This document shows positions 18,994 to 28,350 of a stretch of 35,518 nucleotides of DNA, piece by piece. The stretch comes from a virus. The first letter of the stretch is position 1. Each line of letters begins with the position of its first letter. The DNA is taken from positions 1-35,518 of the IMG/VR virus record IMGVR_UViG_3300021426_000170; one strand, written 5' to 3'. The notes under the pieces were generated by a model, which worked only from the letters and a program-made list of their open reading frames with translations, was not told the origin of the DNA and ran no database searches. Position numbers and translations under genes: made by a program.

Positions 18994-21900
18994 TTAATTT
19001 CTTAATGCTCTTTGAATTGCCATATTCGCAAGTTCATAGAATGCATCTTCAATTTCTTTTCTAGTATTAACATTTGGAAATACTGCTTCAATATTCACAG
19101 TTTGTTCAATACTTTCACCATTAGTATTATCAAATAAATTACTAAAACCGCCTTTGATATTATTTGCTCTTGAGTATAAAGAACCTTCTAATGAAGTCTT
19201 TAATTCATCTAAGATGATAGCCATAGTGCTAACTCGCTCATTTAATCTATTTATTCGCTCATCACTTGATAATGAGTCCATTGTAGAATCTTCAAAGATT
19301 TGCATCATTTCAGATAATTGTGAACCATACACTGTACTATCGGCTTGATCCAATCCATTAAGAACCTGATCTTTTGCGGCATCCCAAGTACCAAGTCCAA
19401 TAGACTTATCATCTATTTTATTAAAATCATTTGTATCATTTGCGGATTTCAGATTTGTTTGCTGAAGAAGATCATGTATAGTGCCACTTGTAATCATTGC
19501 ATTTTTAGTAACTTCTTTATAAGCTTCTGCAAGAGAATGAATATAATCTCTTAAACTAGCAACTTTTGTCATTTCTTTATCCATATTTGTCATAAGAGCA
19601 TCATTAGCAGTAATTAATTTACTGGTCTATTCAGCTAAAGCGCTAACACCTTCTTTTGTTTTTTCAAAATCAGTTCCCGCGCTTTCCGCGGTTTCTTTTA
19701 CATCATTTTTATATTCTTTAGATGCTTCACTGACTTTTTCAAAAGCCTATTGACAAGTTGGAACAAAACCGCCCTCTTTAGTCATAGCATCCATCATTGC
19801 CTGAATACCACTATCCCAAGTAGGAACTAAATCTTTCATTATTAAGTCTTTTTCTTCAATGGATAAATTCTTATAATGTTTTGCATCTTCATTATTAAGT
19901 AACGCATAATCTTGTAATGCTGAATCAGTTAAATTACCTCTAATAACTTCATTCTAAGCAAGTTTACCATTAATATATTCTGCATACTGCTGTTGTAATA
20001 ATGCAGCCTATCTAGCTTGATCTTCCTAACTCTTTGACATATCAGACATAATTGCTTTATACTAAGATTGAAAATCTTTCCAAGCCTGTAATGCATCAGA
20101 TAAATTAGAATTATATCTTTCTTTATCAAAGTTATATAAATCATTATTAAGCTAAGCTAATCTTCGCTGAGTCTATAAAATATCATCATCATCCGCAATA
20201 TATTCATATGAATAGTTGCCTTGAGAATCTCTCTTTAATCTCATAGTAGTTTTTGCGGCTTGTGCATCTTCTAATGCAATTCTGGCTTGTTCTAATTCCA
20301 ACAGCTTCTGAGCACGCTCGACATCATACTCAGTTAACTTATCTTTATTTTCAAGATTAGTTAATTGTTCATCCATCAATCGTTTTAATGCCTGTTGATT
20401 TTTTAAATCTTTAGTATCATTAATAGCCTTATTAAACTATCCTCTTAAATCTTGAAGCGCAAAAGCAGCATTAATAGTATCATAATACTCGTCTGCATTT
20501 TTATTCAACAGATCCCATTCTTTTTCAACAAAATCAGAGCCTTTTCCGTCACTAATTCTTCTATCTAACTCATCAAAGATTTTATTAATAGAATTAATGT
20601 ATTTATCTTGAATAGTTTGAATAGATTGTTCAATCATACTATTTAAATTGCCAATAGTCTAACGATAATGTTGTTCAAACTTTTCTGCGGCATTGGTATC
20701 TCCTGCGTCAACGGCGGCCTGCCATCTTTCTTTCCACCACGCCGCCTGTTGCCTTAAGAAATCTATTTGCTTATTAGAATTTTCATTAAGCTAAGTATAA
20801 TATTTATCCATCGCCTCATAGTTTTGATCACCATATAACAATGATAATAAATCCATATCATGAGTTAATAACTATTCTACAAAACCATAATTCTACATTT
20901 GTTTATTAAATTGATTATCAATTTCATCAATAGTTGAGAGATATGCCTAATCAACTTCATCAATAGAAGATAACATCCCTTCTAACTGATCTTGTAATGA
21001 TGCTAAATCAGTTTTTAAATTTTCTAAGGCTTTTTCTTTATCCTTGCCATAGATTGCGGATGTACCACCTTTATCAATTTTTTCAATTTCCGCTTGAGTT
21101 TTAATTAATTGATTTGTTATTGTTTCAATTGAACCAGCTGTATCACCGTTGCCAAAATATGAGAAGAAGTCTTTACTGCTCTTTGCGGCGTCCGCAAATA
21201 TTTTATCAAAGTTGCTATCTTTAACAACATCAGTTTTTTCTATTACATTACGATAGAAATTATTCCAATCTCTTTGGGCTGCGCTCATATCAAGATGAAC
21301 ATCAATTGTTGTTCTAAATCTCTAAACATTTTTTTCAATTCTTTCTTGCTCTGCTTCATTGATATCATCTTTTGAGTCTTCAATCGCTTCCCTCAACTCA
21401 TCATAATTTTTTATTTTATCTTTTAAATTCTATAGACTATCACTAGTTTTATTAATTTGTTTATCAAGTTTCTATAATCTTTCTTTTAATTTATCTTTTT
21501 TATTTTTATTTGTTTCTTTATTATATTCTTTAACTAACTTATTATATTTATCAGTTTTCTTATTAACCTAATCTTGCTGTTTACCAACTATTTTCATATA
21601 ATTGGTAATATTGCCATAAGCATCAAAAGTTACTCCAAGCCCTTTTAATGCTTTTTGCTGAGAAGCTAAATCTTTTTCTTGAAGTTTTAATTTTTCCTCA
21701 AGTTTTTTCTTCTGCTCTTCTAACAGTTTTGATTGCTATCTTAAATTATCTAAAAGATCTTTACCATATAAATGGTCTTGCTTCTTTTGTGCGCGGTCAA
21801 GGTTTCGATTAATTTTTTCAATTTGGATATTTATATCATGATAAATATCTCTTTCATCTTCAATCTTCTTTTTCTTATCTTTCTTCCCTTTATCAGGTTT

Positions 21901-24900
21901 TGCAGCAGATCCTTTACTGCCGCCTTTACCACCTTTACCGCCTCTTCCGCCGCTGCCACCAGAACCAGCACGACGAGCAGAGCCTGCAGAGCCGCCACCA
22001 TTTGAAGCTTGTTTAAACTTAAAACCGCCGCCAGAAGATTTATGAGCAGATGTCACTTTTAAAGAAAAAGCAGAATTTTCTTTTGTATCAGTAGTTGTAG
22101 TTGTTCTTGGAATATATTCACTATCATAAACAGTATACTAAATAGGAGCTGTACGAACTTCCATATCCTAACCGCGACCAGAAATAATAGGAACCTAACC
22201 TACTCTTGTCTAAGGAATAAGTTCACTATCAAATCCAGTGATAGTTTTATTCTAAGTTCCCTGATTTTTTTGCTCAACAACCTCAGCATCAATACCCATA
22301 GAAGCCAAATAATCAGTTGCTTGCTCGGCAGTCATATGGGCAGCATTTACTAAATCTCCTAATTCTTGTAAAAAATTATCTTGATTTAAATCTGCGCCAA
22401 TTTCAAGGGTTTGAAAGTTCATAAGATCTAATGAGTTTTGAACAGTATCTAATGATGACATAAAGTCTTCATACATACCTTCATCCCATTTAATGTGACC
22501 AATGATATCCTGCTGCGCGGCAATCATTAATCTATCATATGCCTAAGTATCACCATCAATGGCGGCTTTCATATCATTTAAATTATCTGTATTAGATAAA
22601 AAGTCTTCTGATAAAGAGCCTCCATCTAAATCAAGTAAATCAGCATAAGCCTCTCTCATTTCTGACATTGCTTGTACTTGATCTTGGATAGAACCACTTT
22701 CTAATGCTTTTGTCCAATTCTTATAACTTTTTACAACATTTTGACAAGCATCATCAAATCTTAATATTTCTTCAGAAAGTTTTTCAGCACCTTTTCTATC
22801 TGTCTATAAACCATTATGTAATTCTTCTGTTTCATCAGCAACGTCTTGAATATGATCTGCCAAATTTTCCCACTAATCAGTATCAACATCTGCATCTAAT
22901 TTTGTTTCGCTGATTTGCTATTGTAAGGCTAATCTTTCTTTTCCTTTTTCTATAAGCTAAGTCTAAATTTGATTTAATTCTTCATCAGCTTCTATCTACG
23001 CTTTTTTAGCAGATGCAGCATCTGATTCAGCTTGCATTACTTCGCCTTGACTAAATTGTCCTTCATTTTCAACTTTAAAATTTGCTTTTGCATAATCCTA
23101 TTGACTTTGTTTTTTAATCTCTTCTAATTCAGTTTTTCTATTCTATAACTATTGAATATGTTTTTCATTCTCCGCCAACAATAGTTCTTTTGTTACTTCT
23201 AATTCAGACTATTTTGCAGCAATTATTTGATTAAGAACGTCAAGGTATTCTTTTGAATTTACTCCATTCTAAGCTGCTTCATTTAAAATAGAATATTCTT
23301 TCCCAACTGTAAATAAAGCAGACATTTGTTCATCGCTTAGCTCTCCACCTTTAGTTAAAGTATCTCTTGCGGATGTTAGTGTAGAAACCTCTTTTTTATC
23401 AGTTTGAAAATTATCAAAAGAGGAACTAGTTGATGTGACTCTTTCAACCTATTTTTTAAAATCTTCTGCATTAAAAGTACCATTTTTTAATGCTTCAGAA
23501 ATTTTATTAATATTATCAATAATCCATTGATAATCTGTTTCCACTCCAAGAGAAGCGAATAACTCATTTAAAGTTTGTAAATGTCCTAATGCCTAAGAGT
23601 CTTTAACAGCGGCTTGCGCATTTTTATAATCTTTGAATTTATCCTTTGCACTATCTACTGCTTTTTCTAATTTACTAAGATTTTCACTTTCTTTATATAA
23701 ATTTAAAGCAGCCTATTTAGTCTAATTGGAATTAAAAGCTAAATTATTTGCTTTTGCAAACTATTCTAATTTATCTTCTGTTAAATTAAGTTGTTTTACT
23801 TCCTATCCAAAAATATCATTCCATAAAGCTTGATATTCAGCTGGACTAATTTTAGATTTTAACTACTATAATTTTTCAAAACTAGTAGCAAGGATTGATA
23901 ACCCTTCTGCTCTTTGCATAGAATCAGAAGTTGTTAAAACTGCGTCTTCAAAATCTTTTAATAATTGTTCAGTATCTTGAAGTTTAGAAGGATCGACCTA
24001 ACCCTCATATAAATTAGATAATAAATTAGTTTTTTCTTTATATGATAAATCTTTTCCAGATTGAATTTTTTGAATAGCGGAAGAAACTTTATCAAAATTT
24101 TTAATAATATTATTAACATTATCATCTTGAGCGTCTTGAGCAAGAAAATCTTGAATCCATTGTTTTGCTTCTTCAAGAGTTTTAAACTATGGTTTAAATT
24201 TATTAATTTGCTAATTTATTTTATTTAATTGTTCTTCAGAAAAATTCTAATTTAACCAATTTTGTAAAAAATTTTTAGCATGAGTATCTGTATATCCAGA
24301 AATGCCTTCTTCAATAGAATCATTTAAAGTTGAAGCAATTTCTTTTCCCAAAGAGGTTCCTGCGGTAAAGACTTTAAAAACTTCTCGAACTCCATCTTTA
24401 AATACAAAATTTAAATTATCTAATCCATAAATAGATTTAATTAAATTAATTATCATATCTTTTTGCTCTGGATTATTTAACATCTATTGAATCTATGGAT
24501 TATTAAGCCAAATATTATTTATAGACTATATAATTGCATCTGAAATCTGTTTGACACTTTGATCATTATTAGCAAAAATTTCTTCAATATCTTTAATACT
24601 TTCATTTTCAGCACTTTTTATTATCTAACCGCTTTGGACTAAATTATCATAAATCAATTTAATTTTATCTACCATTGATTGATAAACCTAATCCACAGGG
24701 ATGTCATCGGTTGAGCTAGTAATAGTATCTATTAATAACATTAATAAATCTTTTTGATTCCAACCAACTTTAATAAATTCTTCTTGTAAATTATCATATA
24801 ATTCTCTATTTACATCATCAATGCTAAAAGCTCTTAAAAGCGCATCGGCATCTTCTTCAGTGTAATAAGTTTTTTCTTCTTGCTTTTTTGTTGCATCATC

Positions 24901-27900: not shown

Positions 27901-28350
27901 AATACTAGATGTAATACTCCATTTAATAGTATTCGCCATTGAAGTAGCCATACTGTCTAATAATTTATTACTTTGTCTTAATTGAACATTTGTATTTAAA
28001 ATTTGTGTAGCAACGTTATTAAACGCCGCCTGTCCAGCCGCGCCAACTTGAGAAAAAGCTTGTTGGACTTGACTAATAGAGCTACCAGAATTTTTTAAAG
28101 TCTTATTAAATTGTTCAATATTAAGAGTATTTAATTTCGTATTGAAGGCTTTCTTTAATGCATTTTCTACATTCGTCGCCTATGTTTTTACTTGTCTTAA
28201 AGTTTCTGTTGCGGAGGCGGCGTCTGTATTATTAATCTTCATTACATCACTGATTTTTAATTTCTGTATCTATTGCAATGAAGATTTTAATTGGTTCAAC
28301 CCTTCTTTTTGAATGTCAAAACCAACTTGATATTTAATCTGATTCGCCAT
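18994..28350 (-). CDS. Tail tape measure protein, a single reading frame of about 3118 codons.
   Basis: ATG 28348-28350 with SD AAGGAG (plus strand ctcctt, 28361-28366). All 11 track fragments are frame 0, from 27319..27504 down to 18994..19593. Every checked junction is TAG, for example 28267, 26686, 22543, 20173 and 19627. At least ~35 in-frame TAGs are inferred from fragment spacing. The stop is TAA 18994-18996. TMP-type motifs are present (MATAISKVASTANAMGVDIDQLNGQIATVIATTRQAPESVGVAFKTIYARM; MAALGFNVLDANGHL...). Confidence 0.8.

Follow-up and report, generated by a model that had tools for sequence, protein, structure and literature searches.

The window analysed here is the whole 35,518-bp stretch of the IMG/VR virus record IMGVR_UViG_3300021426_000170 (32% GC). 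It corresponds to the right-hand 35.5 kb, up to the contig end, of the ENA contig ERZ12302851 NODE_1573, and the identical sequence has been assembled in ENA, Logan and IMG/VR. Our subject is the open reading frame (ORF) at positions 18994-28350 on its minus strand (Table 1), which our analysis confirms as one selected gene encoding the tail tape measure protein (TMP) in a tail module, and the meaning of the many TAG codons within it. A stop count found neither TGA nor internal TAA in minus-strand frame 0 over 3,118 codons, an event with a probability of ~1e-95 given the base composition; the other five frames of the same interval contain 183-501 stops each. The in-frame TAGs, counted exactly in silico, number 85 (2.73 per 100 codons). 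An earlier sequence-only reading of this DNA, which had spoken of at least ~35, was right about the TAG-richness of the gene and far too low on the number. Its description as the densest amber user in the window holds for the count (85, the next gene having 23) but not for the density, which is highest in a small RuvC-like resolvase gene (3.07 per 100 codons). Under the standard code the ORF splits into 86 pieces, the longest of ~200 codons. TAGs are distributed along the gene with the exception of codons 345-554 and 2909-3118. These two TAG-free stretches of 210 codons each, in which ~5.7 TAGs would be expected, span the end of the conserved TMP core and form the C-terminus, respectively.

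The family assignment comes from the N-terminal part of the protein. The Pfam domain PF10145 (PhageMin_Tail) was found with an E-value of 9.8e-29 and 101 bits (cutoff 33.2), and ten PHROG TMP families match residues 1-590 (best E 4.5e-58). Homologues of this core number 372 at E<=1e-10 in a collection of 5.8 billion proteins, and tblastn hits include TMPs annotated in large siphoviruses of Enterococcus and Bacillus. A tail fibre gene downstream agrees with the assignment. The alternative of a crAss-type virion RNA polymerase, or of some other giant protein, was rejected on the Pfam and PHROG TMP families. A megablast search with the gene returned no match among 50,697 phage records.

A 98%-identical copy of the TMP region is present on the 133.9-kb contig IMGVR_UViG_3300021399_000007 (L003). 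Its TMP has the same length of 3,118 codons with 84 TAGs, and the two genes differ by 123 synonymous and 45 non-synonymous codons (ratio of non-synonymous to synonymous substitution rates, dN/dS, 0.106). In ERZ12302851 NODE_1573 the TMP had already been called as a single product of 3,118 residues. Full-length homologues were found in six other contigs, one of them in standard code. They include proteins of 2,854 residues with 85 TAGs (L005), 2,613 residues with 47 TAGs (L007), 3,150 residues with 110 TAGs by our recount (the gut phage phAss-1) and 2,939 residues with no in-frame TAG (MT835936, L002). The latter, an UNVERIFIED Bacteriophage sp. from human faeces that is 40% identical in the N-terminal 620 residues, serves as an unrecoded control; its TMP gene truly ends in TAG, at a point that aligns with the C-terminus of the window TMP. 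This uninterrupted homologue makes the giant single-ORF TMP independent of any recoding assumption. A length kept at ~2,600-3,150 residues among relatives of 25-44% identity is as expected of a ruler.

No frameshift or non-TAG stop dividing the ORF was found, and L003 keeps the same frame. The claim of a single tape measure gene is borne out by PF10145, by the conserved frame in the 98%-identical genome and by the standard-code homologue, as is its great length, some two to three times that of common siphovirus TMPs. That the interval is instead a decaying pseudogene, several genes split by true TAG stops or an assembly chimera is effectively refuted already: the 86 standard-code pieces, of a kind also seen in the GenBank annotation of phAss-1, stand against the open frame, the low dN/dS over the full length, the identical frame and length in an independent assembly and the full-length homologues elsewhere. 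The gene is a new, distant member of a described kind, the giant TAG-recoded TMPs of the phAss-1 group, for which 3,149-3,209 residues have been reported in TAG-recoded gut phages (Babkin et al. 2023, PMC10607447).

The amino acid specified by TAG

In the window lineage TAG most likely specifies glutamate, not glutamine, judging from the comparison of related genes. The sequence-only reading had suggested re-translation with TAG as Gln, and this did not hold up in several independent tests. In a pairwise test on the TMP, within-clade alignments were restricted to sites with >=50% identity in the flanks. The 177 partners of TAG comprised 67 E, 28 K, 25 D, 12 N, 11 G, 8 T and only 7 Q, while true Gln pairs with Gln in 67% of cases under the same flank filter. 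The log-likelihoods for TAG were -389 for E, -496 for K, -503 for D and -566 for Q. When the TAGs were sorted by genome of origin, those of the window, L004, L005 and L007 fit Glu best, and those of phAss-1 itself fit Gln best, weakly. Composition points the same way: within the clade the E content falls from 8.5 over 8.2, 8.0 and 7.5 to 6.5% as the TAG content rises from 0.03 over 1.2, 1.8 and 2.7 to 3.0%, with Q flat at about 6%. The depleted residue in phAss-1 is Q.

Columns of the conserved core are also informative. The TMP TAG columns 185, 223, 261 and 282 hold Glu in 73, 74, 98 and 102 of 120 homologues, and the standard-code TMP of MT835936 has mostly Glu where the window TMP has TAG. 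The pooled profile of the TAG columns (E 43%, Q 12%) resembles that of true Glu columns (E 42%, Q 10%) and not that of true Gln columns (Q 44%, E 10%). A conserved-column test was conducted on the DNA of seven recoded genomes at two thresholds. At 50% conservation TAG occupied 19 of 126 Glu cells, 1 of 129 Gln cells and none of the 117 Lys and 135 Asp cells (Fisher p 9e-6). At 80% the values were 8/50 for Glu against 0/60 for Gln; a TAG synonymous with the Gln codons would be expected in a share of 0.21 of the latter, which gives the observed zero a P of 9e-7. The same kind of test on the full-length TMP family, where the alignment is too divergent, yielded just ~2x Q/TAG enrichment.

The endolysin encoded in the window provides evidence from a second gene. 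Its codon 222 (window positions 1946-1948) is a TAG at the position of the catalytic Glu of the GH73 glucosaminidase domain, as seen in a PDB alignment to FlgJ, where 'AQAALETGWG' faces 'AQCCLxNGYG' (x = TAG), and it is here that the Gln assumption failed. Ten TAG-free relatives (57-82% identity) served as comparison set. In these, the seven TAG columns of the endolysin read E in 10/10, E in 9/10, E in 6/6, P/Y, E4 D2 V2, E in 8/8 and E3 Q2 M3, the 10/10 column being the catalytic one. At conserved columns TAG was found at 4 of 13 Glu, 0 of 12 Gln, 0 of 27 Lys and 0 of 26 Asp positions. The remaining window genes contribute too few usable TAG sites for a separate test, with E at 3/13 in the tail fibre.

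Rescoring of family profiles gave concordant results. The GH73 profile reaches 65.0 bits with E and 60.8 with Q (+4.2), PF10145 103.6 against 102.1 and RuvC 22.1 against 20.1. Among PHROGs, E scored at least as high as Q in 12/13 families, by up to +7.3 bits.

A candidate suppressor tRNA and a presumed late change of code

No tRNA genes were found within the window. In the 98%-identical genome (contigs L012 and L025), an array of at least 14 tRNA genes is located ~8-17 kb to the left of the region corresponding to the window. It contains a tRNA with the anticodon CUA, tRNA(CUA), at L025:7584-7657 (Rfam 64.7 bits). Its acceptor carries C1-G72, G2.U71 and A73, and its D-arm, UA-GUG-GAGUGGUUUAA-CAC, closely resembles that of the phAss-1 tRNA-Glu(CUC), which likewise has G2.U71 and A73. 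The three suppressors of phAss-1, in contrast, have a weak first pair (A-U, U.C, U-A) and G73, like the phAss-1 tRNA-Gln. A weak 1-72 pair together with G73 is used by glutaminyl-tRNA synthetase (GlnRS) for recognition, and U1-A72 by the amidotransferase GatCAB. The acceptor features of tRNA(CUA) fit a Glu-accepting suppressor that would escape conversion to Gln. An Rfam search for theta/HDV-like ribozymes beside the suppressor found none.

A second tRNA of the array has the anticodon UUA (L025:8950-9022; 51.3 bits). It is AT-rich, with a U1xU72 mismatch and a Gln-like acceptor (G73). TAA is the clean stop of nearly every window gene despite this ochre-reading tRNA. The array also holds a TAG-free gene of the sigma-70 family, with a TAG-free ORF of 503 residues nearby (L025:4746-5693 and L012:16758-18269), and a sub-threshold match to a Y-RNA-like element (YrlA; L025:9315-9426) lies near the sigma-70 gene (30.5 bits, cutoff 69).

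TAG usage in the window is divided by strand. With TAG as sense, the minus-strand block at 581-28909 resolves into long genes. None of the window genes ends in TAG: the late block uses 11 TAA and 2 TGA, and the early plus-strand block, which is presumed to be translated before the code switch, 8 TAA and 1 TGA. A late switch of this kind is established for code-15 phages (10.1101/2021.08.26.457843); in the present phage the evidence is the TAG distribution in the window, and the timing is presumed. Expression of the TAG-free plus-strand genes, and presumably of the tRNA array, would take place under the standard code of the host. The phage tRNA(CUA) would then be charged with Glu, most simply by the glutamyl-tRNA synthetase (GluRS) of the host, and C1-G72 and A73 would keep it from becoming a Gln-tRNA through GlnRS or GatCAB. 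TAG-bearing late genes (TMP, fibre, endolysin and others) would become translatable once tRNA(CUA) is abundant. Since TAG occurs almost exclusively in the minus-strand late block and is absent from the divergent genes, the 350-kDa TMP would be completed only at that stage, with termination at TAG almost abolished. The yield of full-length TMP over 85 sites is 43% at 0.99 per codon (0.99^85) and 1.3% at 0.95 (0.95^85), so suppression has to be near-complete at each codon when the TMP is translated. By the same arithmetic the proposed use of the gene as an internal reporter of suppression efficiency is sound.

We propose, with a probability of about 0.55, that the lineage of the window, IMGVR_UViG_3300021399_000007, 3300032038_000025 and their relatives reads TAG as glutamate, a code undescribed in any virus or bacterium, by means of a tRNA-Glu-like CUA suppressor that is charged by GluRS and escapes the Gln-specific enzymes. 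No natural amber-to-Glu phage code was found in the literature outside subscription-only sources, and the NCBI taxonomy has just a 'code 15 clade' for such phages.

Several observations weigh against this proposal. The decoding evidence is comparative throughout. The sole TAG difference between the window and L003 is TAG/CAG. In the Logan contig SRR20337180_3443 (L031), three TAGs are shared and the partners of the unshared ones are Q 4, E 3, D 1 and S 1, a set with a rough likelihood ratio of ~4:1 for Glu that alone cannot separate the two readings. The Gln partners in this contig sit at columns 185, 223 and 261, which hold Q in 5-12% of the homologues. Because TAG to CAG is a single transition and Q occurs in these homologues, we read the close-range exchanges as probable Glu-to-Gln replacements at tolerant sites, although they are also predicted if TAG means Gln. 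TAG sites vary more than true Glu sites, pairing with E in 38-43% of cases against 60-72% and with K and D more often, and one Pfam family, S74, scores lower with E (34.1 against 35.8). As to the suppressor, it is known from the 98%-identical genome and lies outside the window, and its charging with Glu is pure inference. Its isotype is not callable, similarity to the phAss-1 Glu, Val, Arg and Gln tRNAs being about equal (0.64-0.67), and its BLAST neighbours in phage records are Trp, Sup and 'Pyl' tRNAs. No cellular donor was found; the D-arm motif gave 58 matches in 185,579 genomes, none inside a tRNA gene. The UUA tRNA, finally, could also read TAG by wobble.

Some of these points would be accommodated by an ambiguous decoding, in which tRNA(CUA) is glutamylated and partly amidated, or the Gln-like UUA tRNA reads TAG as well. 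Each TAG would then yield a mixture of Glu and Gln, and TAG would gather at positions that tolerate both. Exchanges of TAG with both E and Q codons at close range, the variability of the TAG sites and the presence of two candidate decoders in the array agree with such a mixture. Many Bacillota, moreover, make their Gln-tRNA by amidation of Glu-tRNA. The TAGs at the catalytic Glu and at near-invariant Glu columns nevertheless argue for Glu as at least the major product, and the clean TAA stop in every gene argues that the UUA tRNA is no efficient general suppressor. We consider a mixture improbable.

Slightly less probable still is that TAG means glutamine, as in the crAss-like, Lak and phAss-1 phages (code 15), and that the lineage has replaced many ancestral Glu by Gln/TAG. 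Such a scenario could invoke the close-range exchanges of TAG with CAG/CAA and the weak first rank of Gln for the TAGs of phAss-1, and gene callers and databases already read TAG as Gln. It is also the only amber reassignment that has been reported for phages with standard-code hosts (10.1101/2021.08.26.457843; PMC10607447). It would, however, require Gln in place of the invariant catalytic Glu of the GH73 domain and of three other fully conserved Glu residues in the endolysin, and it does not explain why TAG avoids the conserved Gln columns of both endolysin and TMP, why profiles score higher with E, or why the suppressor lacks the U1-A72/G73-type acceptor of the phAss-1 suppressors.

Architecture of the protein and gene neighbourhood

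The length of the TMP had raised the question of embedded enzymatic domains, and these did not materialise in Pfam, PHROG and PDB sequence searches over the whole protein. No lysozyme, M23, transglycosylase, SLT, NlpC/P60 or Rpf domain was found at E<=0.01 with Pfam or PHROGs. At that threshold Pfam reports PF10145, three sub-threshold matches of coiled-coil type and nothing else. A less helical segment, residues 1901-2114, has no Pfam match even at E<=1, and PDB searches with residues 1-1000 and 1001-3118 returned only low-complexity noise. Self-BLAST found no internal repeats. A match to the 'endolysin' family phrog_669 covers just the TMP-core part of that profile. Like the Tmp of mycobacteriophage TM4 (PMC1796659), the window TMP is a long siphovirus TMP whose extra length could host accessory domains; unlike TMPs of that type with embedded lytic motifs, it contains no such motif at any threshold tried. 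The protein body is rich in E/K/Q/A/L throughout, which favours helices. A less helical, beta-prone stretch at residues ~2030-2100 precedes the Gly/Lys-rich linker, and this region has a weak match to phrog_26112 (unknown function). Further examples of TMPs with embedded lytic motifs are T5 Pb2 and SPbeta YomI, and a membrane-like hydrophobic segment, of which the window TMP has one (Table 1), is typical of TMPs. For the C-terminal 210 residues, a single-sequence AlphaFold2 model is all-helical at low confidence (predicted local distance difference test, pLDDT, 46.7).

By analogy with established TMP biology, the protein would be extended inside the growing tail tube and set the tail length. 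At 0.15-0.175 nm per residue, this predicts a tail of ~465-550 nm; at 0.15 nm, 114 residues were predicted to account for ~17 nm, and ~20 nm were observed (PMC1796659).

Three observations speak against the TMP role: some 2,500 residues have no family-level homology, no slippery heptamer for a chaperone frameshift was found in the two small ORFs 5' of the gene (the 93- and 57-residue ORFs), and no recognisable Dit/Tal genes lie beside it. A -1 frameshift in the chaperone genes is common in TMP loci, though not universal. The product could conceivably be a fusion of a TMP-type N-terminal module with ~2,500 residues of another role (pilot, envelope-spanning or an unrecognised enzyme), in which case length would not translate simply into tail length. 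Strong family homology is restricted to residues 1-590, L031 is 76-78% identical over residues 1-520 and ~38% beyond, a sign of modular evolution, and a non-helical stretch and linker occur at residues ~2030-2165. On the other hand, the total length is kept at 2,613-3,150 residues across relatives that are just 25-44% identical, the composition stays E/K/Q/A/L-rich from end to end, the TMP family phrog_339 weakly matches residues 1825-2395, and no enzyme family matches anywhere in the protein. We regard a fusion as unlikely.

In L031 a stop-filled insert of ~440 nt (L031:11204-11665) interrupts the TMP ORF in frame after residue 401. It weakly matches the group I intron family RF00028 (20.5 bits, cutoff 50) and could be a self-splicing intron within the tape measure gene.

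Table 1. Features of the tape measure locus and its surroundings (positions in the window)
Feature	Position	Strand	Description
Endolysin	581..2611	-	Amidase_2 and GH73 glucosaminidase; 7 TAGs
RuvC-like resolvase gene	12826-13317	+	163 codons, 5 TAGs; opposite strand inside late block
Tail fibre gene	13763..18688	-	1,641 residues, 23 TAGs; PHROG tail fibre families; C-terminal Peptidase_S74 chaperone PF13884
XkdX-like ORF	18783..18944	-	53 residues, 2 TAGs; between TMP and fibre; PF09693 E 8e-4, 19.8 bits (cutoff 23.5)
GC-rich hairpin with T-rich tail	18969..18988	-	just 3' of TMP stop; terminator-like; palindrome scores on + strand too
TMP ORF	18994..28350	-	3,118 sense codons and terminal TAA; 85 in-frame TAG; ~350 kDa
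TAG-free C-terminal 210 residues	18997..19626	-	C-terminus aligns with that of standard-code L002
Gly/Lys-rich low-complexity linker	21856..22041	-	residues ~2104-2165; from composition bins and sequence
Hydrophobic Gly-containing segment	25813..25893	-	residues 820-846, IAGIIANSILPGSGMVVTMIGNGIMSV; sole strongly hydrophobic one (Kyte-Doolittle)
Conserved N-terminal TMP core	26581..28350	-	residues 1-590; sole part with clear family-level homology
PF10145 domain	27154..27768	-	residues 195-399; holds TAG codons 223, 261, 282, 344
Shine-Dalgarno AAGGAG	28361..28366	-	strong; 10 nt 5' of TMP ATG; read from sequence
57-residue ORF	28383..28556	-	directly 5' of TMP; -1 frame relative to 93-residue ORF; no family match
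93-residue ORF	28574..28855	-	5' of TMP where tail chaperone is expected; no family match; gene call in L008
Divergent block	29078..35219	+	nine genes, no in-frame TAG save one 59-residue ORF; ends all TAA/TGA

Among the other genes of the window, the RuvC-like gene contains two adjacent TAGs in the motif 'IIMxxV', where members of the RuvC family have a catalytic Glu; searches of this gene against PDB gave no matches. Two large ORFs, at 3350-6610 (-) and 6607-9654 (-), encode 1,086 and 1,015 residues, overlap at ATGA and match consecutive parts of phrog_14959 (positions 502-1305 and 1532-1993 of 2,494). They could represent a split gene, a TGA read-through or a two-gene version of a large tail or receptor-binding protein. 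The only in-frame TAG of the plus-strand block occurs in an ORF of 59 codons at 30626-30805 (+). This ORF contains neither GAA nor GAG; it could have been mis-called, or be a gene on the border between early and late. The neighbouring interval 30819-31646 (+), in the TAG-free block, encodes a protein of the Thg1-like tRNA-His guanylyltransferase family, and past the right end of the window (L009:2165-4324) there are an RNA ligase, a KTI12/AAA_33 kinase-like protein and Metallophos phosphoesterases. Together these resemble a toolkit for tRNA repair in a phage dependent on its own tRNAs. A TAG-free protein of 825 residues at 31698-34175 (+) has a major-vault-protein shoulder domain (PF11978). 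Its CAG:CAA ratio of 26 to 2 is the opposite of its neighbours, and the local GC is ~0.40 against 0.32, which suggests that the gene was recently acquired.

Related systems and consequences of a proposed glutamate code

The phage is most likely of ~134 kb and siphovirus type, from gut-type metagenomes, and distantly related to the phAss-1 group ('Phassvirus'; OQ749652, BK046881, BK025033). The latter comprises siphovirus-type phages of the human gut with genomes of ~133-138 kb, a large tRNA array and TAG-recoded late genes, and phAss-1 shares with the window the order of TMP followed by a large fibre-like gene. The two TMPs share ~25% identity along their entire length and 31% in the N-terminal core (E 2e-48), so that the window phage stands well apart and falls outside the phAss-1 genus. 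The decoding differs as well: the published assignment for phAss-1 is TAG to Gln, with suppressors of Gln type, whereas in the window lineage TAG behaves like a Glu codon and the suppressor carries C1-G72 and A73. The code-15 phages (crAss-like, Lak) are also alike in having a phage-encoded suppressor tRNA, recoded late structural and lysis genes, unrecoded early genes and a presumed standard-code host. The amino acid differs, as conserved columns in the window lineage give Glu. A natural amber-to-glutamate reassignment exists in the nuclear code of peritrich ciliates (NCBI table 30), where TAA and TAG specify Glu. That code is eukaryotic, genome-wide and includes TAA, in contrast to the present phage, which would recode TAG only, in late genes, and keeps TAA as its main stop.

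If the glutamate reading is true, all database proteins of this lineage are mistranslated under code 15. In the TMP alone this would amount to 85 wrong residues and an error of 85 in net charge (-220 and pI 4.57 with Glu, -135 and pI 4.80 with Gln). The public protein collection holds exact copies of the Gln-decoded endolysin and RuvC-like proteins and not the Glu-decoded versions. Gln-decoded versions are stored in ENA, Logan and one NCBI record on a 177,934-bp contig; the GenBank record of phAss-1 carries a standard-code annotation fragmented into small 'hypothetical proteins'. Under Gln decoding the catalytic Glu of the endolysin becomes Gln, and errors of this sort may lead astray predictions of structure, inferences on activity and searches of proteomic data.

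Within its group the TMP is unremarkable, but its 85 TAGs gave the statistical power to see that amber does not behave as Gln. Two kinds of stop recoding have so far been distinguished in phages, TAG to Gln and TGA to Trp, explained by the easily hijacked GlnRS and tryptophanyl-tRNA synthetase (TrpRS). The largest survey found just these two where the phage code differs from that of the host (Borges et al., 10.1101/2021.08.26.457843). TAG as glutamate would add a new variant to the recodings of phage stop codons and break this two-case rule. With TAG as Gln in the sister group phAss-1, the same stop would have been captured twice, or re-assigned, within one phage group. The GluRS and Glu-tRNA amidotransferase route of Gram-positive hosts would form a second entry point for a change of code, and the choice of amino acid for a reassigned stop would become testable by comparing two related phage groups.

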